Positions 20,947-35,920 of a stretch of 35,920 nt of DNA are shown here, piece by piece (position 1 is the stretch's first letter; the number at the start of each line of letters is the position of its first letter). The stretch comes from an uncultured Candidatus Saccharibacteria bacterium (GTDB lineage: Bacteria > Patescibacteriota > Minisyncoccia > Phycocordibacterales > DATDWN01): positions 1 to 35,920 of the forward strand of contig CAZKCA010000006.1 of assembly GCA_964551495.1 (NCBI GenBank). Direction: 5' to 3'. Made by a program: the position numbers and the translations under genes. Under the pieces are notes generated by a model that was given only the letters and a program-made list of their open reading frames with translations, made no database searches and had not been told where the DNA came from.

Positions 20947-20951
20947 TATTT

Positions 20952-21341: not shown

Positions 21342-21344
21342 GAT

Positions 21345-21728: not shown

Positions 21729-21828
21729 TTATCCACATTTTCTTGTATTTTAGCCAAATTTATACTATAATTTGGAGGTAGTTATTCGGTCGTTAGTTTT
21801 ATTAAAATATTTTAATAATTATAAAATA

Positions 21829-22182: not shown

Positions 22183-22194
22183 TAGCAGTATTTT

Positions 22195-22470
22195 ATGATT
22201 ACCATTGCTCCTTTCTTAAATAAAGTAAACGCTTTTATAATAAACCCTCTTATATATCTTTTGTTTGTTGTATCATTTGTTTACTTTGCCTACGGAGTTT
22301 TCAAATTTCTTACTCTGGACGCTTCTGATGGGAAGAGGATAGAAGCAAGAAATGCTATTTTGTGGGGGATTGTTGGAATGGTAATTATGTTTTCTGTTTT
22401 CGGGCTTATCAGGTTTGTCTTGGACACATTTGGTATAAGTCCATCCGAAGTTAGATATATCGAACTTTAA
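22195..22470 (+). CDS. VirB2/TrbC-like pilin-family protein, paralog 6 (no signal peptide)
   Basis: FAYGVFKFLTLDASDGKRIEARNAILWGIVGMVIMFSVFG shows the same helix-loop-helix. A terminator follows. Confidence 0.5.
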   Translation: MITIAPFLNKVNAFIINPLIYLLFVVSFVYFAYGVFKFLTLDASDGKRIEARNAILWGIVGMVIMFSVFGLIRFVLDTFGISPSEVRYIEL

Positions 22471-22472
22471 TA

Positions 22473-22500
22473 AAAACCGCCTTCGGGCGGTTTTTGTTTT
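22473..22500 (+). terminator. Intrinsic terminator ending the pilin-like array
   Basis: AAACCGCC-ttcg-GGCGGTTT followed by a T-run. Confidence 0.8.
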
Positions 22501-22562
22501 GTGTAAATTTTTGCATAAAAAAACCGCGAGTCTCCCATTGTTAGGGAAAAACTCGCGGTAGT

Positions 22563-23906
22563 CTAGTAAAACTCAATCTTGTATTTTTCTTCTTTTTCGG
22601 TCATCGACCGATATCGAAGAGTTTTGATTTGCTGGTCTCGGATTTTTGCTCGGCCAGCTTTTTTGGGATCAAGTTCAATAACCTGATCCCCATTTATTTC
22701 AATCTGGGTAATTTCTTGCCCTAGACGATCGGAAGAGAAATTCCGACCATTAACCTCAATTGTTTCAGACCATTTTCCACCTGTTGGGGCGGTGATGATC
22801 AGTGTTTCCTTTGCCACTACCGGAGCGGTTGCTTCGGTAGAAGCTTTCCAGGCCGTCAGACCTGTTTGGTTATAGAGGTAGAGTGCTGCGAGGAAGTTTC
22901 CTTCCTCGGCTTCAGGATTGATATCCTTTATCTGGACATCATTTCCAAACCCGTTGACCTTGCGGTCAGGGTAGGCTGATACCTCCCTATACCATGAAGT
23001 CAGGTTGATTTGGTGTAAGCCTCGGTCGTTGCAGTTAATTCTGCCAACCAGGGCTTGCGAGCCATCGGATTCGAGATGGTTGTATTGAGACTCTCGTTCG
23101 ATGATCTTCATCATCTGTTCAAGATCCTCTTTGCTTTTGGCATGTTTGGACCAGAATTCTCTAGCCTTTTTTTCTCCCTCGGCGTTTGGGCCAGGGATAG
23201 GGCCGAGATTTCCAATTTCAGGACAGTCCGTTGGTGACGGCCGTCCAGAGGTTGCTTTTAGGTCCTCCGTGTTTGGTGGCGGATTAAGCCACGGGTCAAT
23301 CCATAGATTGAACACAAGGCCTGCCAGGGCAGCCCATATAACTGCATTACCAAACCCTGTGAGGACGTTTTCTTTTTTGCCTCGTTCCACCTTTTCTTCC
23401 CGAAGGAAGAGGTAGGCTAAGGCAATTGCCACTTGAGTAAAAACCGTCCACCAGTTTAGGATGTACTCTTTGTATCCCCACGTATCGTGGAAGAAAACAG
23501 CGAGCACTAAGTGTGTGAGCCCCAGTCCAACTAGTGGCTTCCAAACCTTTTTCCAGGTTTTAGTCAACCAGGATTCTCTATTTGGGTCTGGAGGATTTTT
23601 GATTATCTTTTTTCTCCATCTGATGAATAAAAATCCACCAATAGGGAGAAGAATTGATAGGACTAACACTGTCCACCACAACCATACTGGCATACCAGCA
23701 TCTAACTTTTGCAAGTAGACAAAGGTTTTCAGAATAGTTGTTGTTGTTAAGTAAAGGGCAATGACCACTAACACCAAAATGGTAATTGTGACCAAAGTTA
23801 TTCCAAGAGTTTTACCAATCAGACCAAGGGTCTTTTTGGTCGGTTTGACTGATGACAAGAAGTTGTCAATCAAATCGAAGGGTTTTTTTAACCAATCCCA
23901 GTTCAC
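22563..23906 (-). CDS. Polytopic membrane protein with a C-terminal lytic-transglycosylase (SLT)-like domain
   Basis: About 6 N-terminal TM helices. IIERESQYNH...DRGLHQIN...AALYLYNQTG fits the SLT E-S ... GLxQI ... Y..G pattern. GC is clearly above the window background. A minus-strand terminator lies at 22523-22559. Confidence 0.5.
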   Translation of the reverse strand: MNWDWLKKPFDLIDNFLSSVKPTKKTLGLIGKTLGITLVTITILVLVVIALYLTTTTILKTFVYLQKLDAGMPVWLWWTVLVLSILLPIGGFLFIRWRKKIIKNPPDPNRESWLTKTWKKVWKPLVGLGLTHLVLAVFFHDTWGYKEYILNWWTVFTQVAIALAYLFLREEKVERGKKENVLTGFGNAVIWAALAGLVFNLWIDPWLNPPPNTEDLKATSGRPSPTDCPEIGNLGPIPGPNAEGEKKAREFWSKHAKSKEDLEQMMKIIERESQYNHLESDGSQALVGRINCNDRGLHQINLTSWYREVSAYPDRKVNGFGNDVQIKDINPEAEEGNFLAALYLYNQTGLTAWKASTEATAPVVAKETLIITAPTGGKWSETIEVNGRNFSSDRLGQEITQIEINGDQVIELDPKKAGRAKIRDQQIKTLRYRSMTEKEEKYKIEFY

Positions 23907-25048
23907 TTCTTTCCTCCTTCTGTTGGTAGTCCGATTTGGACCCCTGTCCCTCCTGCTACGTATGTGGTTAGTTTACCTACTGCTTCTGCATTGATCTCTG
24001 CTACAACTGTAGCCGTAGCAAGTCTCAACGCTTCAGGGGCAGGCATACCACCTTTAACGTACATTTCCATAAGAGCGGATACTCTTCTTGTTTTAGCTTC
24101 AGCTATCTTCGCAATATATCCTCCTTCTCCATCAGCTTCAGCCAATTTTGCATTAGCTTTTTCTTTTGCGATGCGGGTTGCCTCTAGAGCCTCTTGCATT
24201 TTTTCAGCAGCCTTAGAGATTTCAGGGTCACTGATGTATAGGTGTTTTACTTTTACGCCAAGAGGTTTAAGTCTCAGGTTTAAGTCTTCCATTGCTTCAC
24301 CGAACTTTTCGGTGCCCAATTGTTTATCGGACTTTTCGCCTTTACCTTTATATGTTTCCCAGTCCATTTTAAGAACTTGGTTAGAAATAAAGGTTCCGAT
24401 GATATCGCTGATGGTCTGTAAAAAACCATCACTATATACTTCAAAGAAAGGTCTGGCATCCTCAACTTCAACAATTGCTGTGCTAAGGATATTGAACCGG
24501 ACCTGATCTTTGGTATCTAGTTCGTGATGATAGGTAGGTCTTGGAAACTCGGCATAGAGTCCGTATTTTTTTACTTTCGATGCTTTGAGTGCACTAGAAA
24601 GTCGGATTTTTTCTTGAGGAGTTTCTTCTGTGTCTTTTCTTACAACTCTGTCTATATAGACAGGTTTTACGTTCCTAAGATAGGGGAGCCCGATCCAGCG
24701 AACACCAAATGTCTTGATTAGCCAAGACTGTATAGATATTTCATTTCTAACTAGATTAGTTAGATTTTCAATTGTAACCTTAGTGTTAACCCTTTTGGGT
24801 TTAAGTTTACCATCTGGTCTTATCTCCTTACCTTTAACATTCCCTACATAATTGATTATAGGGCCGTTTTCCTCATTTCCGGCCACTATGGCTCGGATGA
24901 GGTTGGGTGTCTCATCCACAAACCCAAGACTTCGCCAGAAGCCCCATTTTTCAGAGGATTCCTGTTCCTCTGGTTTTCTGACTAGCAGTCCAGTGATAAC
25001 GATTATCACTGTTGCTATTAATGATAGAGAGGCAAAAAAGATTAACAT
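23903..25048 (-). CDS. Membrane-anchored protein with SPFH/band-7-like features (tentative)
   Basis: N-terminal TM and an Ala/Glu/Lys-rich C-terminal coiled region (EALEATRIAKEKANAKLAEADGEGGYIAKIAEAKTRR). 4-nt overlap with the downstream gene. High GC. Confidence 0.35.
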   Translation of the reverse strand: MLIFFASLSLIATVIIVITGLLVRKPEEQESSEKWGFWRSLGFVDETPNLIRAIVAGNEENGPIINYVGNVKGKEIRPDGKLKPKRVNTKVTIENLTNLVRNEISIQSWLIKTFGVRWIGLPYLRNVKPVYIDRVVRKDTEETPQEKIRLSSALKASKVKKYGLYAEFPRPTYHHELDTKDQVRFNILSTAIVEVEDARPFFEVYSDGFLQTISDIIGTFISNQVLKMDWETYKGKGEKSDKQLGTEKFGEAMEDLNLRLKPLGVKVKHLYISDPEISKAAEKMQEALEATRIAKEKANAKLAEADGEGGYIAKIAEAKTRRVSALMEMYVKGGMPAPEALRLATATVVAEINAEAVGKLTTYVAGGTGVQIGLPTEGGKK

Positions 25049-25128
25049 CTTTTCTCCTTTTCAAGATTGAATTTTCAAGGAACCGACTAGAGGTTTGACC
25101 CTAAAAGCCAGAACCTATTCCGTTATTA

Positions 25129-25157
25129 ATTCTATCACAAAAAGGCTAAAAAGTCAA
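25129..25157 (-). promoter_or_regulatory. Sigma70-like promoter for the GC-rich two-gene operon
   Basis: On the minus strand: TTGACT, 17-nt spacer, TAGAAT. AAGGAG RBS before the ATG at 25048. Confidence 0.55.
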
Positions 25158-25213
25158 GCTAAATTTTAATAAAAAAACAGCTCAACAAAGAGATATTTTT
25201 AATATTTTTATTA

Positions 25214-25394
25214 GTGGGCAAGGGGAGACTTGCCTCCAAATTTTCTTTCGTCGTCACTCAAGAAAATTCTAGGCGCCAGATTTCCGACAAGCTCTGTTGA
25301 GCTTGTAGACCGGAAATCTGTTCGAGTCACCTCACACAAAAATATATTTTTGCTATTGCTCCGACGAAAAAACCGGCTTTCGCCGATTTTCGTG
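25214..25394 (-). repeat. tRNA-tail element Leu-TAG (Leu type), ending in a 17-nt copy of the tRNA-Leu(TAG) tail
   Basis: gtgggcaaggggagact occurs at 25214-25230 and 25394-25410. Minus-strand order is as follows. Hairpin+U-tract, then GGTGACTCGAAC (inverted T-loop). Then a nested hairpin AGATTTCCG[GTCT ACAAGCTC-AACA-GAGCTTGT]CGGAAATCT and GGCGCCTAG. Then the AATTTTCTT-GAGTGACGACGA-AAGAAAATT hairpin, then the tail copy. Confidence 0.8.
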
Positions 25395-25476
25395 TGGGCA
25401 AGGGGAGACTCGAACTCCCAAGCCGTGAGGCACTAGTTCCTAAGACTAGCGCGTATACCAATTCCGCCACTTGCCC
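25395..25476 (-). tRNA. tRNA-Leu (anticodon TAG), class II long variable arm
   Basis: GGGCAAG/CTTGCCC acceptor, CTAGT-CTTAGGA-ACTAG anticodon arm, GGGAG-TTCGAGT-CTCCC T-arm. No CCA encoded. Confidence 0.9.
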
Positions 25477-25529
25477 AATGATTTATACTTTATAATATTT
25501 TTTTAGAAAAAGAAAGAGGGGATTTTTTT

Positions 25530-25705
25530 GAATCATGTGGTCAGGAATAAAAAAGGATTCTTCCGTGAGTAAAACTTTACTGTCCGCCTTGTTGTCGAGA
25601 CAGGTCGCAAAATTTTCTCGTGTCCGCAGCTCGCGACCAAGTCTGCTGACTTGGTACCCGCTCCGGTCTGCACATGTAAGAAAAAATCTGGAGCAGTCCA
25701 GATTT
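25530..25705 (-). repeat. tRNA-tail element unit Lys-A (distal), including its hairpin/U-tract module
   Basis: The core GACCGGAGCGGGTACCAAGTCAGCAGACTTGGTCGCGAG is shared with the Trp element. It ends ATTCCTGACC + ACATGATTC. The hairpin at 25681-25705 is identical to 26004-26028 (25 nt). Confidence 0.75.
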
Positions 25706-25815
25706 GAATCGTGTGGTCACAAATAAATTTCTGCTGAAATTTTTCGCGACCCCGGCTTGGCCCGTCGGCCTGCGCCTTGCACATGTAAACAAAAACAGCA
25801 TAACATGCTGTTTTT
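25706..25815 (-). repeat. tRNA-tail element unit Lys-B with its hairpin module
   Basis: ACATGTGCAAGGCGCAG, a GGCC-GACG-GGCC hairpin, GGGGTCGCG, an AAATTTC-AGCAG-AAATTT hairpin, then ATTTGTGACC + ACACGATTC. Preceded by the hairpin AACAGCAT-gtta-TGCTGTT plus T-run. Confidence 0.75.
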
Positions 25816-25894
25816 GAATCATGTGCACCCAGCAGGAATTTCTCCTACAATTTTCTTTCGTCGTCACTCAAGAAAATTCTAGGCGCCAGATTTT
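25816..25894 (-). repeat. tRNA-tail element unit Lys-C (truncated Leu-type unit), ending in a 19-nt exact copy of the tRNA-Lys tail
   Basis: 25819-25837 equals 26035-26053. The 45-nt block aattttctttcgtcgtcactcaagaaaattctaggcgccagattt is identical to the Leu-TAG element. Confidence 0.8.
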
Positions 25895-26029
25895 AATCTT
25901 TGTGGTCACAGATAATTTCCTCGTCGTCACTCGGAAATTTCCGCGACCCCGTCTCGCTTGTTTTGCTTGGTAGCAAAACATAGCTCCGCCTTGCACATGT
26001 ACTAAAAAATCTGGAGCAGTCCAGATTTT
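25895..26029 (-). repeat. tRNA-tail element unit Lys-D (proximal), including its hairpin/U-tract module
   Basis: The hairpin AAAATCTGGACTGCTCCAGATTTTTT follows tRNA-Lys. Then ACATGTGCAAGGCGGAGC, a GTTTTGCT-ACCA-AGCAAAAC hairpin and GCGAGACGGGGTCGCGG. Then an AATTTCC-GAGTGACGACGA-GGAAATT hairpin and ATCTGTGACC + ACAAAGATT. Confidence 0.75.
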
Positions 26030-26039
26030 ATTAGTCATG

Positions 26040-26112
26040 TGCACCCAGCAGGATTCGAACCTGCGACCATCTCCTTAAGAGGGAGTTGCTCTACCACCTG
26101 AGCTATGGATGC
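26040..26112 (-). tRNA. tRNA-Lys (anticodon CTT)
   Basis: GCATCCA/TGGGTGC acceptor, ACTCC-CTCTTAA-GGAGA anticodon arm, GCAGG-TTCGAAT-CCTGC T-arm. No CCA encoded. Confidence 0.9.
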
Positions 26113-26115
26113 GTA

Positions 26116-26263
26116 TGTGCTCGGAGTGGGAATCTCCCTCGAAATTTTTTCGTCGCCACTCAAAAATTTCTGGGCACCGGTTTGTCGACAAGCCCTGTTG
26201 GGCTCGTAGACCGACAAACCGTTCGATTCTCACGCACAAAGCTTTGCTTTGTTTCCGTGGCTG
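26116..26263 (-). repeat. tRNA-tail element Leu-TAA (Leu type), ending in a 19-nt copy of the tRNA-Leu(TAA) tail
   Basis: tgtgctcggagtgggaatc occurs at 26116-26134 and 26262-26280. Same module order as the Leu-TAG element, with compensated stem changes. The distal tail copy lies 3 nt from the 5' end of tRNA-Lys. Confidence 0.8.
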
Positions 26264-26345
26264 TGCTCGGAGTGGGAATCGAACCCACATCCCTTTCGGG
26301 ACAACATTTTAAGTGTTGCGTGTATACCAGTTCCACCATCCGAGC
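26264..26345 (-). tRNA. tRNA-Leu (anticodon TAA), class II
   Basis: GCTCGGA/TCCGAGC acceptor, CAACA-CTTAAAA-TGTTG anticodon arm, long variable arm, GTGGG-TTCGATT-CCCAC T-arm. Confidence 0.9.
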
Positions 26346-26346
26346 A

Positions 26347-26826
26347 TTAAATATTTTTACCAATATTTTTTCCTCTATGTGTAGGTTGAAGACTATGACA
26401 GTTTGGACACAAAATCCTCAAATTTTCTAGTCTATTATCGTACCTATTACCATTTACGTGGTCTAGTTCTAAAGGAATTCTACCGTCTGTCGATATTTTA
26501 GCCCAACCACATTGTTCACATTTTGGCTCTTTTAGTTTAGCTGAAAAAAGTCTTTTTTTCAACTTAAAACTCTGATATGTACTTTTTGAAACTAGAATTT
26601 TATAAAGTGGTATTATTGGATTTTCTCCAAATTTCATACCCTTATTCCATGTCATTCCAGTAAAATGAGAAGTATCTAGGTTATTTTGTTTTACGTATTT
26701 CTTAACTTGTTCGTAGTTTCCACCAGTAGGTTTCAGTCCTAAAAGTTTTATAACATTTCTAATACTTTTAGATTTTTTAACTGCCTTTATGAGCTGATCA
26801 TCTGACCATTTTCTAATTCCACCCAT
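26347..26826 (-). CDS. Free-standing HNH endonuclease (homing-endonuclease-like) with an N-terminal HTH-like domain
   Basis: CEQCGW...LELDHVNGNRYDNRLENLRILCPNCH is the zinc-bound HNH motif. The stop codon lies 1 nt from the tRNA-Leu(TAA) 5' end. Confidence 0.8.
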   Translation of the reverse strand: MGGIRKWSDDQLIKAVKKSKSIRNVIKLLGLKPTGGNYEQVKKYVKQNNLDTSHFTGMTWNKGMKFGENPIIPLYKILVSKSTYQSFKLKKRLFSAKLKEPKCEQCGWAKISTDGRIPLELDHVNGNRYDNRLENLRILCPNCHSLQPTHRGKNIGKNI

Positions 26827-26900
26827 AGGTTTATAATTATTGGTATGCGATAATTATAATATATTTAAGTGTGTATTCCAAATAGTCTTTTAAAATTTTG

Positions 26901-26972
26901 AGGCCTGAGGCGGAATCGAACCGCCGTATATTCCTTTTGCAGAGGAATGCCTTACCACTTGGCTACCAGGCC
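26901..26972 (-). tRNA. tRNA-Cys (anticodon GCA)
   Basis: GGCCTGG/TCAGGCC acceptor, TTCCT-CTGCAAA-AGGAA anticodon arm, GGCGG-TTCGATT-CCGCC T-arm. Starts 5 nt after the rbfA stop. Confidence 0.9.
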
Positions 26973-26977
26973 TTATT

Positions 26978-27301
26978 TTATTCTTGATTAGAAAGATCGT
27001 CAATTTTTTGACGGTTTTTCTCTCCTAAATCGATTTCAAAATTGATAAAAGGAATTCTACCTAATTTTGAGTTATTTTGCACATATTTTCTAAACTCGCT
27101 TCTCTTTCTTTTTGCAAATTCAAGAGCTGTTTTTTCGTATGAATCAGGGAAAACTGTGAAAAATACAGTACATCTTTTACCATCTTTAGATAAGTTTAAA
27201 TTTGTAACAGTGATAAGTGAGGATCCATTTCCTTCATATTCCAAAAATTTGGAAGCTAAATCTCTTATGACCTCAGACGCTCTTTCGCTTTTTATAGACA
27301 T
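26978..27301 (-). CDS. rbfA: Ribosome-binding factor A
   Basis: 107 aa. The RASEVIRDLASKFL...ITVTNLNLSKDGKRCTVFFTV pattern is typical of RbfA. Located immediately downstream of infB. Confidence 0.85.
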   Translation of the reverse strand: MSIKSERASEVIRDLASKFLEYEGNGSSLITVTNLNLSKDGKRCTVFFTVFPDSYEKTALEFAKRKRSEFRKYVQNNSKLGRIPFINFEIDLGEKNRQKIDDLSNQE

Positions 27302-27302
27302 A

Positions 27303-28802
27303 TTATTTTTCTACCATTACAAAATTTTCTATATAATCTCCTGGGGCTAATTCTGTTCTTGCTTCAAGCATAACTCCACATTCTTTTCCTTCTCCTACTT
27401 CATCAGTTTTTACTTTTTGAGATTCTAATCCTCTAATTTTGCCTTCACCAATTTTTTCATCTCTTCTTAAAATTTTTATCATAGATCCAACTGATAATGT
27501 TCCACTTTCTACTCTACAACCAACTATTTGCTTATCTTTTATTTTGCTAAAGGTTTTTAACACTTTTGTTCGGCCTTTTATTTCTTCTTCCAATATTTTA
27601 GGAGTTAGATTTTCCAATTTTTCTTTTAGAAATTCGCTTAGTTTGTATATTATATTGAAATTATGAATTTGAATTTCATTTCTTTCAGCTAGGGTTTTGG
27701 CAGGTGAATCTACTTTTGTGTTAAATCCTATAACTAAAGTTTTTTCATTTCCTAAAACAGCTTTTATATCATTTTCAGATATAGTTCCTACTCCAGAGTA
27801 AACTATTTCAGGTATAATTCTGTCATTGCCTAGTTTTTCTACTTCATATACAACGGCCTCCAAACTTCCAGCCGTATCAGCTTTCAAAACTATGGGTATT
27901 ATATTATCGCAAGACTTTTCTTTTATTTCTTTTTTATTTTCTTTAGCAGAAAGCTTATTCTTTTCCACGAATTCTAAAGCTTCATTTTTGGTTTCAAAAG
28001 TTTGGAATATCGCTCCAACTTCTGGCATACCATCCCAACCAATTATTTTTATTGGTTTTGAAAAACTAGCTTCATCTATTTGTTTTCCAAGATAATCCTC
28101 TATTATTCTAAGTGGAGCAAGACTTGTGCCAGAAGCTACAAACATTCCTTTTTTCATACTTCCATTTTTTATTACACAAGTAGCAGATATTCCTTTTTTG
28201 ATGTCACAGTTACTTTCTATTATCACACCAGAAGCTTTTTCATTTGGATCAGCAGACAATCCCTCCATTTCAGAAACCAAAATAATCATATCCAAAAGTT
28301 CGGATATCCCTTGTCCTGTTTTTGCTGATATAGGAACAAAAGGAACATCTCCTCCGTATCCTTCTACATAAACACCATTTTCTGCCAGACTTTGTTTTGT
28401 TCTGTCTACACTTGCTTCTGGTCTATCTATTTTATTTATAGCAACTATAAAAGGTATTTTTTCATTTTTTATAGATTTCAAAGCCTCAATTGTTTGAGGT
28501 TTTACTCCATCTTCCGCAGAAACAACAAGTATAGCAATATCAGCCACATTTGCCCCTCTTTTTCTGATACCAGAAAAGGCTTCGTGACCAGGTGTGTCTA
28601 GAAAAGTTATTTTATATTCTTTGCCAGTTTGATCCTTGTGTAAAACTTCATAAGCCGAAATATGTTGAGTGATTCCTCCTGCTTCATCTAGTGGCTTTAG
28701 ATTATTTCTAATAAAAGAAAGCAGGGTGCTTTTACCATGGTCTATATGGCCCATTATGGCAATTATTGGCGGTCGTTCTGTTTTTTGTGTATGCATGGTC
28801 AT
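27303..28802 (-). CDS. infB: Translation initiation factor IF-2 (short form lacking the N-terminal extension)
   Basis: GTPase motifs GHIDHGKST, DTPGH and NKID, plus C-terminal IF-2 domains, 499 aa. Confidence 0.9.
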   Translation of the reverse strand: MTMHTQKTERPPIIAIMGHIDHGKSTLLSFIRNNLKPLDEAGGITQHISAYEVLHKDQTGKEYKITFLDTPGHEAFSGIRKRGANVADIAILVVSAEDGVKPQTIEALKSIKNEKIPFIVAINKIDRPEASVDRTKQSLAENGVYVEGYGGDVPFVPISAKTGQGISELLDMIILVSEMEGLSADPNEKASGVIIESNCDIKKGISATCVIKNGSMKKGMFVASGTSLAPLRIIEDYLGKQIDEASFSKPIKIIGWDGMPEVGAIFQTFETKNEALEFVEKNKLSAKENKKEIKEKSCDNIIPIVLKADTAGSLEAVVYEVEKLGNDRIIPEIVYSGVGTISENDIKAVLGNEKTLVIGFNTKVDSPAKTLAERNEIQIHNFNIIYKLSEFLKEKLENLTPKILEEEIKGRTKVLKTFSKIKDKQIVGCRVESGTLSVGSMIKILRRDEKIGEGKIRGLESQKVKTDEVGEGKECGVMLEARTELAPGDYIENFVMVEK

Positions 28803-28844
28803 ATAGTTTAATTTGGTTAAACTTCATAATAGTAAAATTTTTTA

Positions 28845-29327
28845 TTATTTCGACTCTAATGTTTTCTTAGATTCTTCTACAACCTCTTTCTCTTCTTCTG
28901 TTAGTTCAAACTGACTCTTAAATTTTTCTAGAGGTTTTGAAAAGATTGATACTCTATCTCTTGAGTGGAGAGAAGATACTACTACACCATTTCCATTCTC
29001 ATTTAAAAATGAAGTTGAGAAACTTTGATTTCCACCATCTCCAGTTCCTTTAAATGGGTTAAATCTAATTGTTTTTACTGCTTGTATACTTCTCTGTAAT
29101 CTCATTTCTATATTTTTGAAGTAAGAAACTGATTTTTTTTCAAAAGTTTTCAATTGACTGATTTCATCTTTCATTGAAATAATCGTGTCTTCTAGGGATT
29201 TTCCTGATTTGCCAGACATCAATTTTTTAAGCTTTATTTCAAGACGAATAATCCATACAAATAGCAAAATGCTTATTCCACCTGCTATATAAGAGATAAG
29301 TAATGGATCTAAAGTCATCGAGGACAA
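28845..29327 (-). CDS. DUF4446-like membrane-anchored protein
   Basis: N-terminal TM, then RFNPFKGTGDGGNQSFSTSFLNENGNGVVVSSLHSRD, which matches my recollection of the DUF4446 core. Confidence 0.55.
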   Translation of the reverse strand: MSSMTLDPLLISYIAGGISILLFVWIIRLEIKLKKLMSGKSGKSLEDTIISMKDEISQLKTFEKKSVSYFKNIEMRLQRSIQAVKTIRFNPFKGTGDGGNQSFSTSFLNENGNGVVVSSLHSRDRVSIFSKPLEKFKSQFELTEEEKEVVEESKKTLESK

Positions 29328-29385
29328 TTATACATAAAAATTGACATTTTGCAAAACTTTTTGGCCATGTTAGTCTTTAGTTACA

Positions 29386-30564
29386 ATGTTTTTTAGTAAT
29401 AAAAAAGATTCCAGAAAGGTTTTTTTGGATTACGCTTCTTCTACGCCTATAGATCCTGGGGTTTTGCACAAGATGAGTCTTTATCTTGAAAGTCATTTTG
29501 CCAATCCAAGAGCTTTGTATAGTCAAGCAGAGGAAGCCAAAGAAGAAATGAAAATTGCAAAAAGTGATATTGCAAATGTTTTTTCTTGTAAGCCAGATGA
29601 AATTTATTTTACTTCTGGGGGTACTGAGTCAAACAATCTGGCTATTATGGGAGTGTTTTATGCTAATAAAGACAAAGGTTTTAAACCTCACTTTATAACG
29701 ACAGAAATAGAACACTCTTCGGTTCTAGAGGTTTTTAAAGAAATAGAAGATAGGGGTGGGGAAGTTACTTATTTGAAAGTGTCTTCAGAAGGACTGTTTT
29801 CTTTAGAAGAATTAAAAAATTCTATAAAAAAGGAAACTGTTTTAGTTTCTATTGCTTATGCAAATAATGAAATTGGAATAATTAATCCAATTAAGGAAGT
29901 TTCAAAAATTATAAAAGAATGGAAAAGAGAAAAAGAAACTAATTTTCCGTATTTCCATTGCGATGCATGTCAGGCTGTTTTGTATCTTTCTTTGGATGTT
30001 TCAAAAAATGGTTTAGACATGATGACTTTAGATGGTTTAAAAATGTATGGTCCTAGAAATTGCGGTATTTTGTATATAAAAAATGAAGTTCAAATAAAAC
30101 CTATTATGTATGGTGGAGGACATCAAAGAGGAATACGTAGTGGAACAGAAGATATTTCTTCTGTTTTGGGTATGGCATATGCCCTAGATTTGGCAGAGAA
30201 TTTAAAAGAAGAAGAATCAAAAAGACTTTTAAAAATTAGAGATTATGCAATAGGTAAAATTTTAGAAAAGTTTGAAGGAGCTTCTTTAAACGGCTCAAGG
30301 ACCCAAAGACTTCCAAACAATATAAATATTTGTTTTCCAGATAAAGATGCAGAGTTTTTAGTAGTTTCTTTGGATGTTTTTGGTATAGCGGTATCTTATT
30401 CTTCATCTTGTAATACTTTGAAAGAAGATTCTTCCTCTTTTGTTATAAAAGCTTTAGATAAAAAAGATTGTTCGGCAAGTAGCTTGAGGATTACTTTAGG
30501 CAGAGATACTCGAGTGGAAGATATTGATTATCTTGTGGAAAAACTTGAACAAATTATAAAATAA
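29386..30564 (+). CDS. Cysteine desulfurase / class V aminotransferase (NifS/IscS-like)
   Basis: FLDYASSTPIDP, TSGGTESNNLAI, HCDACQA, GLKMYGP (PLP-Lys region) and SYSSSC (catalytic Cys loop). Confidence 0.8.
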   Translation: MFFSNKKDSRKVFLDYASSTPIDPGVLHKMSLYLESHFANPRALYSQAEEAKEEMKIAKSDIANVFSCKPDEIYFTSGGTESNNLAIMGVFYANKDKGFKPHFITTEIEHSSVLEVFKEIEDRGGEVTYLKVSSEGLFSLEELKNSIKKETVLVSIAYANNEIGIINPIKEVSKIIKEWKREKETNFPYFHCDACQAVLYLSLDVSKNGLDMMTLDGLKMYGPRNCGILYIKNEVQIKPIMYGGGHQRGIRSGTEDISSVLGMAYALDLAENLKEEESKRLLKIRDYAIGKILEKFEGASLNGSRTQRLPNNINICFPDKDAEFLVVSLDVFGIAVSYSSSCNTLKEDSSSFVIKALDKKDCSASSLRITLGRDTRVEDIDYLVEKLEQIIK

Positions 30565-30604
30565 TTTATTTACTGTTTTTTGTTGAAATGATATTATTAA
30601 TTCA

Positions 30605-31417
30605 ATGAAAGAACTAAATCAAAACCAATTAATACTTCTAACTCTTCTGGTTAGCTTCGTTACTTCTATAGCTACAGGGATTATTACTGTATCTTTACTT
30701 CAAGAAGCTCCAGTAGAAGTTACTAGAAATATAAATAGAATAGTGGAAAAAACAATTGAAACAGTTACCCCTGTAGACGTTTCTTCTGGAGAAAAAGAAG
30801 TTGTAACTGTTGTTGTTAAAGAAGAAGATTTGATAATGGAGACTATTCAGAAAAATATAGATAGTATTGTTAGAATAAATGAAATAGATTTGAATAATGG
30901 AAATAAAACTTTTTATGGTATGGGAGTAGTTACTTCTAAAGAAGGTAATATAATTACGGCCAGAAAAAATATTTCATATTTATACAAATATGTGGCGACC
31001 ACAAATGATGGAAGAGAATTTATTTTAACACCAGTTGGTTTAGATCAAAATACAAACTTTGTTATATTTAAAGTAAATCTGGAAGAGGGTCAAAATTATA
31101 ATTTTACTCCTGCTAAGTTGGCTGGGAACAATCCTAGTTTAGGTCAAACAATAATAGGTTTAGGAGGTAGCTCCCAAAATATAACTGCTGTTGGTAGAGT
31201 CTCATCTTTTATAACAAGAGATTCTGGTACAGGTACATCTACGGTAAAAATAGTTTCAGGTGTTGAAAATGATATGCCTGCCGGAGGTTTAGTTGTAGGT
31301 AGTCCATTTTTTAATCTTTCAGGAGAACTTGTTGGGGTTAAAATATCCTCATTAAATTCGTCAGCATTTACTCCAGTTACTATAATAAAAGAGGAGATAT
31401 CTAAACTTTCAGAGTAG
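30605..31417 (+). CDS. Membrane-anchored trypsin-like (S1C/HtrA-like) domain protein; catalytic triad not evident
   Basis: N-terminal TM. GMGVVTSKEGNIITARKNI, NFVIFKVNL and VVGSPFFNLSGELVGV align to the His, Asp and Ser boxes, but with R, N and no GNSGG. Confidence 0.5.
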   Translation: MKELNQNQLILLTLLVSFVTSIATGIITVSLLQEAPVEVTRNINRIVEKTIETVTPVDVSSGEKEVVTVVVKEEDLIMETIQKNIDSIVRINEIDLNNGNKTFYGMGVVTSKEGNIITARKNISYLYKYVATTNDGREFILTPVGLDQNTNFVIFKVNLEEGQNYNFTPAKLAGNNPSLGQTIIGLGGSSQNITAVGRVSSFITRDSGTGTSTVKIVSGVENDMPAGGLVVGSPFFNLSGELVGVKISSLNSSAFTPVTIIKEEISKLSE

Positions 31418-31472
31418 ATTTGATTTTCAGGTTTATAAGTGGTATAGTTTACATGTAAACTAATTTTTATTT

Positions 31473-34148
31473 ATGCCACCATTTAATCAATTTACAACAA
31501 AAGCCAAAGAAGCTATTCGTAAGACACACGAATTGGCTATAGAAAGGAACCAGAACCACGTGAGTCCTTTGCATCTTCTGGTCGCTTTGGTGTTGCAAGA
31601 AGACAGTATAGTTCAGTCTATTTTGGATAGGTTAGAAGTGGACACAATACTTTTATCAGACTCTCTTTTAGATCTTATAGAAGGAAGTGATGTTGGTCAG
31701 ACTCTATCTGCTTCGTATCAAATGTATCTTACTCCAGAGTTGGCTCAAATATTGGATAATTCTTCTAAAGAAGCTGCTGCTTTGAATGACGAATTTATAT
31801 CAACCGAACACTTGTTTTTATCAATTGTTTCTATTCCATCTTCTGCAAGAGATTTACTTATAAAATTTAAAATAGAAAAAGATAAAATTCTGAAAATTTT
31901 AGAAGAGATAAAAAATACCAAAGAAGTTTTGAAAGACACACCAAAAAAGTTTAAGGCACTTTCAAAATATACAAGAAATTTAACCAAACTAGCCCTACAA
32001 AATAAATTAGACCCTGTTATTGGAAGAGATAGTGAAATATCTAGAATAATCCAAATTCTTTCAAGGAGAACAAAAAATAATCCAATCCTTATTGGAGAAG
32101 CTGGAGTTGGAAAGACTGCTATAGTCGAAGGTTTAGCCATAAGGATGTCTATGGGAGATGTTCCGGAGTCACTTAAAGATAAAGAACTAATTTCTTTGGA
32201 TCTTGGTCTACTTATTGCTGGAACAAAGTACAGAGGAGAATTTGAGGAAAGACTTAAAAATATTTTGAAGGAAATAGAAAAGTCTGATGGTAAAGTTATT
32301 TTATTTATAGATGAAATACATACTATTGTTGGAGCTGGTTCCGCTGAAGGGTCACTGGACGCTTCAAATATGCTAAAACCAGCACTTGCTAGGGGAGAGC
32401 TTAGGGCAATCGGAGCAACTACTCTAAAAGAGTATCAAAAACATATAGAAAAAGATCCTGCTTTGACTAGGAGATTTCAACCTGTATTTGTAAACGAGCC
32501 AAGTATAGAAGACGCTATTACTATTTTAAGAGGATTAAAAGAAAGATACGAATTGTATCATGGTGTCCGTATTACAGATGAAGCAATTATTTCTGCTGTA
32601 AATTTAAGTAGTAGATACATAACAGATAGATTTTTGCCAGATAAGGCGGTAGATCTTATAGATGAAGCATCTTCATATCTTAAAATTTCACTTGAAAATA
32701 TGCCTCCTGTATTAGAAGAAACTCATTCTAAAGTAGTTAAACTTGAAATAGAAAGAGAGGCTCTGAAAAAAGAAACTGATTCAAAGTCCAAAAACAGAAT
32801 TAAAGATATAGAAAAAGAGATTGCTGATCTAAAGGAAAAAACTTCTGAGATTGAATTGAAATGGAAAAATGAAAAAGAAACAGTTTCAGATATTAAAAAA
32901 ATAAAAAAAGATCTTGAAGAAATGAGAAGGGAAGCTGAGGCAGCCGAAGCCAGGGCAGATCTTTCTCGTGCAGCTGAAATTAGATATGGTAAAATCCCAG
33001 CTTTAGAAAAAGACTTAGATTCTAAAGCCAAAAGACTGAAAAAACTTCAAAGTTCAAGAAGGATTTTAAAAGAAGAAATTACAGAAAATGATATTGCTTC
33101 TATTGTTTCAAAATGGACAGGAATTCCTGTTTCTAGAATGCTTGAAGAAGAAGCTGAGAAACTTGGAAGAATGGAAGAAGTTTTGAAAGGAAGAATTGTT
33201 GGTCAAAATGAAGCGGTTTTGAAAATATCTGACACAATAAAAAGATCAAGAGCTGGTATAGCTGATCCAAATAGACCAATTGGTTCATTTATATTTCTAG
33301 GTCCTACAGGGGTTGGTAAAACAGAGCTAACAAAAGCTTTGGCAGAATTTATGTTTAACGATGATAATGCTTTGATAAGGATAGATATGTCTGAGTTTAT
33401 GGAAAAACATAGTATATCTAAACTTATTGGAGCTCCTCCTGGATATGTTGGTCACGAAGAAGGAGGAAGTATAACAGAAAAAATAAGACACAGACCTTAT
33501 TCTGTTGTTCTTTTCGACGAGGTTGAAAAAGCTCATCCAGAAGTTTTTAATGTGTTACTTCAAGTTTTGGATAATGGTAAACTGACTGATGCGAAAGGCA
33601 GGGTGGTAAACTTTAGAAACACAGTTATCATACTTACTTCAAATATTGGTTCTCAATACATAGATCGAATGGAAAAAATTGGTTTTGCGTATGATAAGAC
33701 TGACAAGGTTAATTATGAAGAAGCAAAAACAAAAGTTATGTCAGCCTTGAAAGATCATTTTAGACCAGAGTTTCTAAATAGATTGGATGAGATAATTATA
33801 TTCGATATTTTAAGCAAAGAAGCTATTGAAGAGATTGTTAAGATTCAAGTTGGAATTGTTACAAAAAGACTTGCTGAAAAAGAAATCTCACTTATTTTAT
33901 CCCCAAATGTTTACAAACATTTGGCTACCGAAGGATATAGTTCACAATACGGCGCAAGACCTTTGAAAAGACTTATACAAACAAAAATTCTTACACCAAT
34001 TGCTTCTCTTATAATTGGCAAGAAGATAATGAAAGGGGGAACGATCAATGTTGATATAAAAGGCAACGAATATATTTTTGATGTAAAGAAAGGAAGGAAG
34101 GGGTCTTTCATAAGCGATGGTTTTGTAGATAAAAATGTGCTAGCATAA
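31473..34148 (+). CDS. clpB: ATP-dependent chaperone ClpB
   Basis: Clp N-domain, two AAA+ modules ([16 protein letters not shown]) and a long coiled-coil middle domain, 891 aa. Confidence 0.95.
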
Positions 34149-34200
34149 CTAAGTTAAAAATAATGTAACATAATAAAAAATATGTTATATTGTTTTTATT

Positions 34201-34283
34201 GCGTCGGTGGTAGAGTGGTCAATTACAACAGACTGTAAATCTGTCGGCTTCGGCCTACGAAGGTTCGAATCCTTCCCGGCGCA
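34201..34283 (+). tRNA. tRNA-Tyr (anticodon GTA), class II long variable arm
   Basis: GCGTCGG/CCGGCGC acceptor, ACAGA-CTGTAAA-TCTGT anticodon arm, GAAGG-TTCGAAT-CCTTC T-arm. No CCA encoded. Confidence 0.9.
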
Positions 34284-34446
34284 CAAAATAATTCCCGTAA
34301 GGGAATTTTTTGATTGACGCCGGAAGTAAACCTCTGGGAGAGGTTTACGTTAGGATTCGAAAACCTGTGATAACTTTTTGTGCGAGTAGCAACAAAAAGT
34401 AGAACAGGTGTACCGTTCATGTAATGAAAGAATCCTTCCCGGCGCA
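34284..34446 (+). repeat. tRNA-tail element Tyr (long AT-hairpin type), ending in a 17-nt copy of the tRNA-Tyr tail
   Basis: gaatccttcccggcgca occurs at 34267-34283 and 34430-34446. The interior starts with the hairpin AATTCCC-gtaa-GGGAATT plus T-run. Next comes an inverted tail copy, TGACGCCGGAAG-[hairpin]-GTTAGGATTCGAA. Then a long hairpin AACCTGT...ACAGGT and GTACCGTTCATGTAATGAAA. Confidence 0.8.
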
Positions 34447-34450
34447 AAAT

Positions 34451-34479
34451 TTGATTTTTTAGTCTAAATATGCTATAAT
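34451..34479 (+). promoter_or_regulatory. Sigma70-like promoter for the PQ-loop-like gene
   Basis: TTGATT, 17-nt spacer, TATAAT, starting 5 nt after the distal tRNA-Tyr tail copy. AAGGGGG RBS before the GTG at 34501. Confidence 0.6.
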
Positions 34480-34500
34480 TAAGGGCAGAAAGGGGGTAGT

Positions 34501-35070
34501 GTGAATACCTACCAAATCGTGAGTACCTTAGGTGCTCTGCTTCTTTACATTCCGCTTGCTTATCAGGTATGGACAGGAAAGGTAAAACAAAATCTTGCAA
34601 CTTGGATTCTTTGGGGGATTCAGGATGCAATCGCTTGTGCAGCAATTTTTGCACAGGGTGGCAATTGGTATATTGCCGGTGCTTACACATTGGGTTGTAT
34701 TGTTATACTATCTTGCATGGTAAGATCAAAAAATCTGACATGGGGACTATTTGAAACAATTACAGCTTCTACAGTAGCGATCTGTCTGGTCGGCTGGTAC
34801 TTTTCTGGACCATATCTTGCAAATATTTTATCTGTGGTAGGTTTGGCTTTAGCCACTTTCCCACAGATAAAAGATGCTTGGAAATATCCAGAGACAATGC
34901 CTGTCGGGATTTATTTCGGGTATACCATTGTAAACTTTTTGGCTACAGCTGGTGGGAATGCTTGGACGGTAGAAGAAAGACTCTATCCAGTAGTAGCAGG
35001 GTTTTGTTGTCTTATTGTGGCGGTATTACCACTTAGAAAAGTTAAATTCATTAAGCCCCATAGCGCCTAA
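34501..35070 (+). CDS. Polytopic membrane protein, PQ-loop-like (tentative)
   Basis: About 6-7 TM helices and a LATFPQIKDAWK PQ motif. GC is above background. The hairpin terminator at 35056-35090 encloses the stop codon. Confidence 0.5.
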   Translation: MNTYQIVSTLGALLLYIPLAYQVWTGKVKQNLATWILWGIQDAIACAAIFAQGGNWYIAGAYTLGCIVILSCMVRSKNLTWGLFETITASTVAICLVGWYFSGPYLANILSVVGLALATFPQIKDAWKYPETMPVGIYFGYTIVNFLATAGGNAWTVEERLYPVVAGFCCLIVAVLPLRKVKFIKPHSA

Positions 35071-35137
35071 GCGCTGTGGGGTTTTCGTTTGACTTGTTTT
35101 ATTCTTTGGTTTAGATTTTGTCATGGAGGCAGATTTG

Positions 35138-35401
35138 ATGTCTGATTGTCAAAATCAAAATGGAACAAAGAGATTGGTTCCATTTTCGGAACTAGTCATT
35201 GGTACGAAGTTCTTTTTTGGAACATCTGTGTGTATAAAAACACAGGAAGGGTGGACTTCGCCCTTGATTCAGTTTGAAGAAGTAAAACCTGAATTGTGCA
35301 AGTTTAACATTGTTTTTCTTACCCCCAATAGGGGGACAATGGGCTGGCTTTCGCCAGATCAGTGTGTGGAGGTTATTGCTCCACACTTGGAGGGCTCTTG
35401 A
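35138..35401 (+). CDS. Hypothetical protein (87 aa from the ATG at 35138)
   Basis: GGAGG lies 8 nt upstream of the ATG at 35138 (the track starts at 35123). A hairpin+T-run terminator lies at about 35403-35436. Confidence 0.45.
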   Translation: MSDCQNQNGTKRLVPFSELVIGTKFFFGTSVCIKTQEGWTSPLIQFEEVKPELCKFNIVFLTPNRGTMGWLSPDQCVEVIAPHLEGS

Positions 35402-35500
35402 GCTTATGCTCAGAGCCTTTTTTCTTTTGTTTTGTGTCTGATTTTGAGACTTGATATCAATATTTTTTTATGTTAGACTCTAATTCACTTATATAAAATT

Positions 35501-35656
35501 ATGTCACAAGATAGATTAATACCACTTAGAAACAAGGAGTCAGGAGAAGTTTACTGGACTTCAAAAAACAAAAAGAAAGTGGAAAGAAAAATAGAATTAA
35601 AGAAGTTTAGTAAAAAGCTCAGAAAAAGAGTGGTTTTCAAAGAGACTAAAAAATAA
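35501..35656 (+). CDS. rpmG: 50S ribosomal protein L33
   Basis: 51-aa ORF below the track cutoff: MSQDRLIPLRNKESGEVYWTSKNKKKVERKIELKKFSKKLRKRVVFKETKK. The Y.T.KNK....K(I/L)ELKK(F/Y)....(R/K)..V.FKE.K pattern is typical of L33. Confidence 0.85.
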   Translation: MSQDRLIPLRNKESGEVYWTSKNKKKVERKIELKKFSKKLRKRVVFKETKK

Positions 35657-35658
35657 AA

Positions 35659-35686
35659 CAAAACCGCCAAACGGCGGTTTTGTTTT
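35659..35686 (+). terminator. Intrinsic terminator after rpmG
   Basis: AAAACCGCC-aaac-GGCGGTTTT followed by a T-run. Confidence 0.8.
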
Positions 35687-35690
35687 ATAA

Positions 35691-35830
35691 TTTGCGGGAG
35701 ATGGAGGAATCGGTCAGGAATATTTTTTTCGTCGTCACTCGAAAAATTTCCCGACCCGGACTCGCGACCAAGTCTGCTGACTTGGTACCCGCTCCGTCTT
35801 TCGATTCCAAAGATAAAACCTTTGGTTTTG
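35691..35830 (-). repeat. tRNA-tail element Trp (CGGAGC...GGTCGCGAG core type), ending in a 22-nt exact copy of the tRNA-Trp tail
   Basis: tttgcgggagatggaggaatcg occurs at 35691-35712 and 35827-35848. Minus-strand order is as follows. Hairpin CCAAAG-gttttat-CTTTGG, then GGAATCGAA (inverted T-loop) and AGACGGAGCGGGTA. Then a CCAAGTC-AGCA-GACTTGG hairpin, TCGCGAGTCCGGGTCGGG, and a hairpin with loop GAGTGACGACGA. Then ATTCCTGACC and the tail copy. Confidence 0.8.
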
Positions 35831-35901
35831 CGGGAGATGGAGGAATCGAACCCCCGACAACGGTTTTGGAGACCGTTGTTATACCACTTAACTAATCTCC
35901 C
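35831..35901 (-). tRNA. tRNA-Trp (anticodon CCA)
   Basis: GGGAGAT/ATCTCCC acceptor, ACGGT-CTCCAAA-ACCGT anticodon arm, GGGGG-TTCGATT-CCTCC T-arm, discriminator G. No CCA encoded. Confidence 0.9.
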
Positions 35902-35920
35902 AGTAAAAAGAATACTATCA

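Follow-up and report, generated by a model that had tools for sequence, protein, structure and literature searches.

In the 35.9 kb of DNA analysed here, hereafter the window (35,920 nt of contig CAZKCA010000006.1 from an uncultured Candidatus Saccharibacteria bacterium, 35.5% G+C, 8 tRNA genes), the tRNA-Trp gene is followed by a short non-coding insert that ends in a second copy of the tRNA 3' end. This Trp tail element is probably a recent insertion of a small mobile element of about 110–170 nt, coding for no protein and belonging to a Patescibacteria family that targets the 3' ends of tRNA genes. We would file the family as small non-autonomous mobile elements whose RNA core is conserved and whose ends, unusually, match the target.

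Anatomy of the Trp element

A 22-nt duplication of the tRNA-Trp tail, originally predicted at 35691–35712 and 35827–35848, was borne out by direct reading and by a repeat scan of the window. Both positions hold the exact direct repeat tttgcgggagatggaggaatcg, which on the minus strand reads CGATTCCTCCATCTCCCGCAAA, the 3' end of tRNA-Trp(CCA). The repeat runs from C56 of the T-loop through the 3' strands of the T-stem and of the acceptor stem to the discriminator G73, and includes 4 nt of trailer (CAAA). Its two copies lie 136 nt apart, with 114 nt of unique non-coding core between them and no open reading frame (ORF) in the 136-nt insert; the second copy is found on the tRNA strand, downstream of tRNA-Trp. 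Recurrence of an exact 22-mer 136 nt away, within 36 kb, rules out chance, and a window scan allowing 2 mismatches retrieved no tail copy away from its own tRNA for any of the window tRNAs. The length of 22 nt was right, but the duplication is not the sole longest one as had been proposed, being tied with the exact 22-nt repeat of element Glu-1 (4004–4025). Since the C at the start of the repeat is also the final C of the core motif CTGACC, the repeat made at insertion may be of 21 nt rather than 22. The parts of the locus, in the direction of tRNA-Trp transcription, are as follows.

35830–35901, minus strand: tRNA-Trp(CCA) gene, with no encoded CCA (ARAGORN; Rfam tRNA, 68.7 bits)
35827–35848, minus strand: tail copy 1, the tRNA's own 3' end (C56–G73) with 4 nt of trailer, CAAA (direct reading)
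35807–35825, minus strand: spacer hairpin CCAAAG/GUUUUAU/CUUUGG (direct reading)
35800–35808, minus strand: X, GGAATCGAA, reverse complement of the T-loop TTCGATTCC
35761–35795, minus strand: 5' core module (CGGAGC...; P4 hairpin 35767–35786), 35/35 identical to 25630–25664 of element Lys-A
35712–35756, minus strand: P5 helix, GGUCGGGAA.../...UUCCUGACC, carrying the 12-nt loop of the family
35691–35712, minus strand: tail copy 2, exact 22-nt repeat; C35696, with which the acceptor stem finishes, is the final base of an RNA contig
35655–35686, no strand assigned: bidirectional terminator hairpin, common to the convergent rpmG (L33, 35501–35656, plus strand)

The element sits between tRNA-Trp and the terminator shared with rpmG. 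X and the start of tail 2 form a closing helix, P1 (GGAAUC/GAUUCC), and the conserved P5 loop reads GAGUGACGACGA (35729–35740). Only 2/5 positions of X match the T-stem of tRNA-Trp, and the anti-acceptor segment, known from other copies, is deleted from this one. The spacer at 35808–35819 (GTTTTATCTTTG) is an 11/12 reverse complement of the trailer CAAAAATAAAAC of the empty-site allele described below; together with the adjoining GGAATCG, it reads as trailer plus T-loop of the empty site in reverse complement, but for the 11 intervening nt, which are absent. Judging from the sequence, the only parts of the Trp copy that would clearly derive from the target are the tail and this 12-nt inverted copy of the local trailer.

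Empty sites and turnover

In a sediment metagenome (X8), a 713-nt contig, about 95% identical to the window on the rpmG side and 92/92 on the tRNA side, skips 35682–35825 and leaves a single tail copy adjoining the terminator. A second X8 contig, of 1227 nt, skips 4004–4125, with the joint ambiguous over the 22-nt repeat, and is thus an empty site for Glu-1 that retains the neighbouring Glu-2. Collapse of the repeats is an unlikely origin of these empty sites, since 22-nt repeats are shorter than the assumed assembler word size (about 31). Both polymorphic copies have perfect 22-nt repeats, in the registers C56..+4 (Trp) and G52..A73 (Glu-1), and the tail of Glu-2, tRNA-distal and present in both strains, is decayed. 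Tails decayed beside intact cores were found at loci L005, L006 and L024 as well as in Glu-2, so that the tail looks like a by-product of insertion and not like a selected part. A fixed 22-bp target duplication was rejected as a rule: only the two young copies suggest it, the repeat being 17–22 nt elsewhere and longer than 70 nt in L011.

The elements also turn over between relatives. L024, a syntenic close relative of the window, has elements of type c at tRNA-Lys(ctt) and Leu-tag, where the window has types a and b (defined below), and the make-up of the tRNA-Lys array differs between samples. The tRNA-Tyr locus is wholly replaced in other strains, the right breakpoint coinciding with the end of tail 2. 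At L001 (5716–6702, ClpB 100% identical), the counterpart of window 34148–34447 holds a degenerate 5' fragment of tRNA-Tyr and a LAGLIDADG_3 ORF, together with another allele of tRNA-Tyr. The flanks of the Tyr locus break at 34147/8 in three metagenomes, to resume at 34448, where the Tyr tail 2 ends. By these alignments, the tRNA-Tyr locus is a replacement hotspot.

Element types and the shared core

Elements lie on the strand of the tRNA and on its 3' side at six of the eight tRNA genes of the window (Glu, Leu-tag, Lys, Leu-taa, Tyr and Trp); none was found at the window's tRNA-Val and tRNA-Cys. The shared order is tRNA, spacer, X, hairpins P4 and P5, and tail 2: X is a 9–11-nt inverted copy of T-loop and T-stem that follows the loop of each tRNA (e.g. 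GGAATCGAA, GACTCGAAC, AGGATTCGAA), and the sense tail 2, of 17–22 nt, begins 60–110 nt further on. At least three designs of hairpins fill the part from X to tail 2. Type a (Trp, Lys-1 and Lys-2, with the variants Lys-A and Glu-2) has CGGAGC, P4, GCGAG and a long P5 with the base GGUCG/UGACC; type b (both Leu elements and Lys-outer) has a P4 of 9 bp plus 8 bp with a conserved GUYU bulge, followed by an A/U-rich P5; type c (Glu-1 and Tyr) has a long hairpin, GGUACYG and a short hairpin. Types a and b have in common the P5 loop GAGUGRCGACGA, counted 5 times in the window and not once in shuffled sequence.

The Trp core had been said to match that of Lys-A at 25621–25658, apart from the first 4 nt (GACG versus GACC), and to be shared with Glu-2. 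Trp and Lys-A do have an exact 35-nt stretch in common, GGAGCGGGTACCAAGTCAGCAGACTTGGTCGCGAG (GGAGC...GCGAG), at 35761–35795 and 25630–25664, which was matched in 0/100 shuffles; the Lys-A coordinates given before were about 9 nt off. The supposed 4-nt difference is really a 1-nt indel (GAC/GGAG versus GACC/GGAG). The X segments differ, as claimed, being GGAATCGAA in Trp (35800–35808) and ACATGTGCA in Lys-A (25669–25677). As to Glu-2, the frame CGGAGCGGG...GGTCGCGAG is kept, but the hairpin that it encloses is different, with compensated changes. Lys-A combines a 5' module as in Trp, a middle part as in Glu-2 and a 3' end, TATTCCTGACC, as in Trp; the three elements are mosaics of modules.

Across genomes, the core of the window Leu-taa element is 95% identical to its L024 ortholog and 93% and 89% identical to tRNA-Glu elements of Saccharibacteria (L011 and L005, respectively), versus 57–60% to the Leu-taa elements of the closer relatives L010 and L023 (in L010, IF-2 is 61% identical and synteny is conserved). 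Between a tRNA-Lys element of Zambryskibacteria (L006) and a tRNA-Arg element of Saccharibacteria (L015) core identity is 86%. Set out as an identity matrix, the cores cluster neither by tRNA nor by taxon (86–93% across different tRNAs, 57–60% at the same tRNA in L010 and L023), so that vertical divergence after tRNA duplication was rejected and a horizontal spread of cores is indicated by these comparisons. The core-end junction (type a, ...GACC followed by the tail) is precise in 9/10 type-a copies read. The original prediction of a mobile or copy-and-customise mechanism, as opposed to a local duplication, is therefore supported by cross-tRNA core identity, by the turnover at L024 and by the X8 empty sites.

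Transcription

No terminator lies between tRNA-Trp and the element, the first one being at 35655–35686, past tail 2; placed between tRNA and terminator, the element is transcribed with the tRNA. Indeed, in a soil metatranscriptome (X11), one contig only was found at ≥95% identity over window 16000–35920. It spans 35696–35887, from the body of tRNA-Trp across tail 1 and the element into tail 2, and breaks off with the final base of the acceptor stem, short of the terminator. No coding gene of those 20 kb is covered in X11, which argues against DNA carry-over. The Trp element is thus transcribed as a 3' extension of the tRNA. In wastewater metatranscriptomes, contigs with related cores were found at depths of 50–380, beside tRNAs at depths of 1300–4100.

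The family in other genomes and metagenomes

The family was scanned for with one exact pattern (AATCGAA, 40–70 nt, TNGAGTGRCGACGAAA) in 596 Gb of genomes (185,579 species genomes) and in metagenomes of the JGI (Joint Genome Institute); taxon labels of metagenome-assembled genomes (MAGs) are those of their depositors. The species genomes gave 17 loci, of which 11 are in Patescibacteria: Paceibacterota, Zambryskibacteria, one Parcubacteria MAG, one unclassified Patescibacteria-group MAG and six Saccharibacteria MAGs. All Patescibacteria matches with enough flank directly follow a tRNA on its 3' side and share its strand (L004 and L038 are truncated, and at L035 no tRNA was recognised). The other 6/17 matches, from other phyla, have no tRNA and no stems and were discarded as chance matches. 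The metagenome scan gave the same picture, and from these pattern scans of genomes and metagenomes the family appears to be specific to Patescibacteria. In a collection of 2.9 million viral contigs the full pattern had 0 matches and the bare loop motif had 40, all without stems and hence due to chance; a phage attP module was rejected as an origin, with no credible copy in that collection.

Altogether, the architecture was seen at about 30 further loci in other genomes and metagenomes, and tail 2 corresponds in each case to the tRNA that it follows (Arg, Glu, Lys, Leu, Gly, Ser and others). At this one position, three core architectures are met with that are unrelated to one another (a/b, c1 and c2). 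Many copies have a fuller anatomy, in the order tRNA, bidirectional terminator, reverse complement of trailer and acceptor 3' strand (anti-trailer and anti-acceptor), P2 (a short conserved hairpin 5' of X), X, P4, P5 and tail 2. In L002, L006 and L029, anti-trailer and anti-acceptor form perfect palindromes with tail 1, whose arms of 24–29 bp have the terminator loop at their centre. Over its T-stem part, X agrees with the cognate tRNA at 3.7/5 positions, versus 2.2/5 for non-cognate tRNAs. Tail 2 often has a 2-nt insertion, AC or AT, after GAT(T), in independent copies at different tRNAs (L005, L008, L010, L011, L018 and L023); it would form an extrahelical bulge in the modelled helix P1 and prevent a proper T-arm from forming with tail 2. 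Neither CCA nor an untemplated tail follows tail 2 in any copy, even where the tRNA gene encodes CCA (L010 and L023), and CCA as a test gave no sign of a mature-RNA intermediate. Of the tRNA genes themselves, 0/8 in the window encode a 3' CCA; the tRNA-Leu-taa genes of the relatives L010 and L023 do.

Trained on 12 type-b copies, a covariance model also retrieves copies of type a, including Trp (54.5 bits, E=1e-10, 35701–35810) and Glu-2 (E=1e-7), which makes types a and b one superfamily with the Trp element as a member. The model has 37 matches at E<0.05, all of them in Patescibacteria loci; control loci, viral and from outside the candidate phyla radiation (CPR), gave E>0.07 only.

Flanks and cores appear to be exchangeable separately, as read from the tandem at L011. 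There (3643–4130), elements of type c and then type b follow tRNA-Glu, with an identical 52-nt trailer-plus-terminator and an identical anti-acceptor, and with different P2, X and core. At L013 (3238–4303, minus strand), a 230-aa ORF with no Pfam match lies between tRNA-Ser and the element, tail 2 being 971 nt downstream; lying inside the element bounds, this ORF indicates that elements can delimit small gene-carrying islets. A second islet of L013, at 5400–6450 behind tRNA-Glu, has a small ORF between repeated units.

Rfam at its gathering score recognised only tRNAs in the window, and a permissive search (E≤5) over 25100–26400 gave nothing credible; ribozymes, omega/HEARO RNAs, group II introns and tRNA-like RNAs are among the families thus left without a match. 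A literature search by topic and by loop sequence, of incomplete coverage, retrieved no description of the family, and an earlier one is possible.

RNA fold and strand

X pairs with the start of tail 2 (P1) and so closes a three-way junction around P4 and P5. Among the 33 consensus P4/P5 pairs of type b, compensatory double changes were found in 21, with almost none broken; in type a, 25 of 31 pairs show compensatory changes. Several pairs alternate between G-U and A-U (e.g. GU:6 / AU:5), on the tRNA-sense strand only, the other strand having C-A mismatches at these positions. The tRNA-sense strand also folds better in 22/23 non-redundant copies, with totals of -985 versus -818 kcal/mol. Both observations point to the strand co-oriented with the tRNA as the one under structural selection; such strand-specific selection fits an RNA, and folded top-strand DNA would also be compatible with the strand test. 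In the Trp copy, the family fold is only 1.5 kcal/mol above the minimum free energy, with a fold z-score of -4.1. This copy alone does not reveal the folded strand (-49.4 versus -50.7 kcal/mol), whereas the comparison of the family does.

Other elements and neighbouring genes of the window

The elements at the remaining five tRNA genes are as follows.

26116–26262, minus strand: Leu-taa element, type b (X 26221–26229; P5 loop 26150–26161; 19-nt tail 2 26116–26134; 118.8 bits)
25536–26038, minus strand: tRNA-Lys(ctt) array of 3–4 nested or tandem units (Lys-1, Lys-outer, Lys-2, Lys-A)
25214–25393, minus strand: Leu-tag element, type b (X GACTCGAAC, 25320–25328; 17-nt tail 2 25214–25230; 102.2 bits)
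3819–4124, minus strand: tRNA-Glu elements Glu-1 and Glu-2
34285–34447, plus strand: tRNA-Tyr element, type c (X 34352–34361; 17-nt tail 2 34430–34446)

The Leu-taa element abuts the 5' end of tRNA-Lys. In the Lys array, units with a short X begin with ACATGTGCA and finish with GACCACA, and some units come directly after terminator hairpins. Glu-1, of type c, is the tRNA-proximal unit, with its 22-nt tail 2 at 4004–4025; Glu-2, a type-a variant, has an anti-acceptor (3961–3969), X (3924–3932) and a decayed tail (3819–3835). Glu-2 was also considered as a degenerate tandem tRNA copy and rejected as such, its anti-acceptor GACCCTA being the complement of the acceptor 3' strand and not the tRNA 5' strand GGCCCTA, from which it differs at a G-U pair. 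In the X8 strain, Glu-2 carries a 22-nt insertion (GTCCGCCTTGTCGTCGAGACAG, plus strand) at window 3857, in the P5-like arm; it matches the longer arm of Lys-A, so that internal modules of the elements are indel-polymorphic.

Between tRNA-Cys and tRNA-Leu-taa, a 159-aa ORF with HNH/HNH_3 endonuclease domains (26347–26826, minus strand) has its stop codon abutting the 5' end of tRNA-Leu. The same two tRNAs are only 28–58 nt apart in the syntenic L010 and L023, so that the ORF looks like a free-standing homing-endonuclease insertion in the tRNA cluster; it is a candidate nickase for events at tRNA genes. Elsewhere, two adjacent ORFs (20094–20522 and 20512–20946, plus strand) code for small secreted-looking proteins with a common N-terminal region of about 40 residues (MKKTLIHSLIIFSLAFFALTSVSFAQSGIEGNQPPATPS), and head a run of short membrane or secreted ORFs extending up to 22470.

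Discussion

Insertion of a mobile element accounts for the empty sites, for the same core at different tRNAs and for perfect repeats at the two polymorphic copies, and several points weigh against it. A sample of the ORFs in the window and next to the copies yielded no transposase, recombinase or reverse transcriptase; neighbouring ORFs, by clustering and Pfam, comprised only syntenic housekeeping genes, the HNH gene and cell-wall-binding proteins. Neither an excised or circular intermediate nor an insertion event was seen, and the empty sites could be precise deletions by recombination between the 22-nt repeats. The RNA evidence consists of one X11 contig at depth 3 and of contigs from relatives, all unstranded. 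Tail lengths vary between 17 and 22 nt, and the L011 repeat takes in 52 nt of trailer and terminator. Finally, plain cut-and-paste with target-site duplication does not explain the additional target-matched inner segments of many copies (anti-acceptor and anti-trailer, set off by P2), nor the match of X to its own T-stem.

An unlikely alternative is that the elements are scars or miniatures of integrase-type integrative elements, i.e., attL/attR pairs resembling cis-mobilizable elements (CIMEs), involving a tyrosine integrase and an attP with the tRNA 3' end, and with the cargo lost. Integration into tRNA genes is classically recognised by direct repeats that begin in the T-loop and finish at the tRNA 3' end or slightly beyond it, and it leaves tRNA fragments (PMC9897764). 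Tandem arrays with the newest unit beside the tRNA would likewise resemble accretion at an att site, and the 230-aa ORF of L013 is cargo-like, with the structured module distal to it. However, none of the ORFs scanned, in the window and next to the copies, codes for an integrase, the viral contigs hold 0 copies, and whole elements measure just 110–170 nt. The same core, at 86–93% identity, is found at Leu, Glu, Lys and Arg tRNAs with different tails, and a tail borne by attP cannot track its target that fast. Covariation of RNA type and conserved loops on the tRNA-sense strand are, moreover, unlike arm-type protein sites.

It is also improbable that the elements are a host-beneficial and largely vertical RNA of the tRNA trailer, i.e., a processing or stability module, a decoy or a mimic of acceptor and T-arm, with tail identity kept by selection or by gene conversion with the tRNA and turnover due to recombination between alleles. 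Such a role would suit the presence of elements at 6/8 window tRNAs despite a streamlined genome, the conservation of structure and loops across classes, and the stacking of anti-acceptor, P2, X and tail 2 into what mimics a coaxial acceptor/T-stem. It would also suit co-transcription, the X11 contig finishing where tail 2 resembles the end of a tRNA, as though a tRNA 3'-processing enzyme had cut there. On the contrary, tails decay beside intact cores (L005, L006, L024, Glu-2), the anti-acceptor has been deleted from the Trp copy, and a close strain lives without the Trp and Glu-1 elements, as do tRNA-Val and tRNA-Cys without any. Three unrelated core architectures in the same place (a/b, c1, c2), and cores that follow neither tRNA identity nor phylogeny, are also at odds with a vertical host RNA.

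Much less probable still is a guide RNA of an RNA-guided system (IS110 bridge RNA, TnpB/IscB omega RNA or TIGR-Tas), with X and tail addressing both strands of the tRNA gene. X is indeed antisense and the tail sense to the same tRNA segment, beside a conserved scaffold, and TIGR-Tas systems, by which both strands of DNA are addressed, are known from parasitic bacteria (PMC12045711). However, X and tail overlap in sequence and pair with each other, and are thus not free guides, and the putative guide matches a site that is already occupied. No effector gene was found among the ORFs scanned in the window and at neighbouring loci, Rfam gave no match, and TIGR units, 36 nt long with 9-nt spacers in regular arrays, differ in geometry. 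A chance repeat or one-off local duplication at the Trp locus is refuted by the exact 22-nt repeat and by the same architecture at 6 window tRNAs and about 30 further loci.

For the mobile element that we favour, the course of insertion can be outlined. Insertion leaves the tRNA intact, since the segment from T-loop to 3' end flanks the insert twice, as tail 1 and as tail 2. The T-loop would serve as a common handle, the core being bounded by AATCGAA on the left and GATT on the right, in opposite orientations, with everything beyond specific to the target. X, the complement of the near-universal T-loop, would pair with the start of tail 2 as P1 and close the covarying P4 and P5 (invariant GAGUGRCGACGA loop); T-loop complement and tRNA-derived tail would act as homing determinants. 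Young copies would land between tRNA and terminator, where transcription is guaranteed. The 3' junction is precise (...GACC, then tail) and the 5' part variable, with or without anti-acceptor and P2 and with spacers; together with duplications of about 22 nt, this fits best with mobilisation in trans, presumably by an enzyme encoded elsewhere. That enzyme may be a reverse transcriptase or a nicking endonuclease that works on the co-transcript in the manner of SINEs (short interspersed nuclear elements), the co-transcript possibly being copied by target priming. Since the co-transcript begins with the tRNA and finishes in a tail complementary to the tRNA gene's bottom strand, both of its ends could home to an empty allele. 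Alternatively, a transposase or recombinase may cut in a staggered way, once at the T-loop and once about 22 bp downstream of it. The tail repeat would be a by-product that decays later, and the locally templated inverted segments (anti-trailer, anti-acceptor) suggest snap-back or template-switch synthesis at the left junction. An excision or circle junction of the Trp element would read core end CTGACC, one tail copy, ACCAAAGG.

More tentatively, and on balance doubtfully, the element may be a self-customising, T-loop-anchored, SINE-like parasite of CPR bacteria that rewrites its own ends from the target. The T-loop handle would be present in antisense at X and in sense at the start of tail 2, and T-stem, acceptor strand and even trailer would be copied from the invaded tRNA gene, for instance through snap-back or target-primed synthesis in which the template is switched at the T-loop. 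The element RNA would mimic the acceptor/T-arm of a tRNA and be trimmed by the enzymes that process tRNA 3' ends.

Should such inserts be present at most tRNA genes of Patescibacteria, they would make up a sizeable unannotated share of very small genomes and a recurrent cause of assembly breaks at tRNA loci. The elements would offer a compact natural case of a universal sequence, the T-loop, targeted without harm to the gene, and the logic by which ends are matched to each target is of interest for an understanding of programmable insertion and perhaps for its engineering. With its invariant 12-nt loop, the conserved P4/P5 RNA points to a protein partner, and the elements could be used as strain-level markers of recent gene flow between CPR classes.

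Comparison with known systems

Small bacterial elements that fold and are co-transcribed with neighbouring genes include the MITEs (miniature inverted-repeat transposable elements) Correia/NEMIS, RUP and ERIC. Like MITEs, the tail elements are small, non-coding, structured, insertion-polymorphic (the Trp and Glu-1 empty sites) and transcribed with neighbouring genes; direct repeats flank them, and their terminal inverted repeats are X and the start of tail 2. They differ in the flanking repeat, of 17–22 nt or longer versus 2–10 nt in MITEs; in a terminal inverted repeat that is a copy of the target (T-arm) and varies with the tRNA; in a strict site and orientation, 3' of tRNAs and on the same strand; and in that no parent insertion sequence (IS) was seen.

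Folded single-strand recombination sites are known from integrons (attC) and from the CTX phage, whose attP(+) is used by XerCD. The tail elements would resemble these in an imperfect hairpin with a stem that reproduces a double-stranded target, in recurrent extrahelical bases (AC/AT in tail 2) and in arrays that grow at a live site. Unlike these, integron integrase and dif-like site are absent, the loops are conserved in sequence, the stem sequence varies with each target tRNA, and cargo was seen once. Among other elements with a bearing on target choice, IS200/IS605 choose their targets through an internal guide that base-pairs with them, and insertion after terminators is known from group IIC introns. 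A target-complementary internal segment (X) and the position of some Lys-array units directly after terminator hairpins recall them, but the tail elements have no TnpA/TnpB gene, no intron-encoded protein and no intron domains (no Rfam match). Neither IS200/IS605 nor group IIC introns make long target duplications, unlike the tail elements.

Integration into tRNA genes gives direct repeats from the T-loop to or past the tRNA 3' end and leaves tRNA fragments (PMC9897764; Williams 2002, as cited there). With tRNA islands and CIMEs, the tail elements share a direct repeat of the tRNA 3' segment from the T-loop flanking the insert, an intact tRNA, tandem arrays and occasional cargo (L013). They differ in being 100–1000 times smaller, in that no integrase was found, in one core family serving many tRNAs, in the covarying RNA core and the extra inverted copy of T-loop/T-stem, and in their absence from viral contigs. 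Of the features that define tRNA-integrating elements, flanking repeats are present (22/22 nt), whereas no integrase turned up among the scanned ORFs and one lineage is not restricted to one tRNA.

Among eukaryotes, the comparison is with SINEs and with retrotransposons that target tRNA genes, such as Dictyostelium TRE and yeast Ty3 (PMC5006619, PMC5911963). The tail elements would share with these non-autonomy, the use of tRNA-gene transcription or targeting as a safe haven, a 3' end that is precise beside a 5' part that varies or is truncated, and target duplications of variable length. They differ in being bacterial, in not deriving from a tRNA body and in having no A-tail, and no reverse transcriptase partner was seen in the sequences examined.

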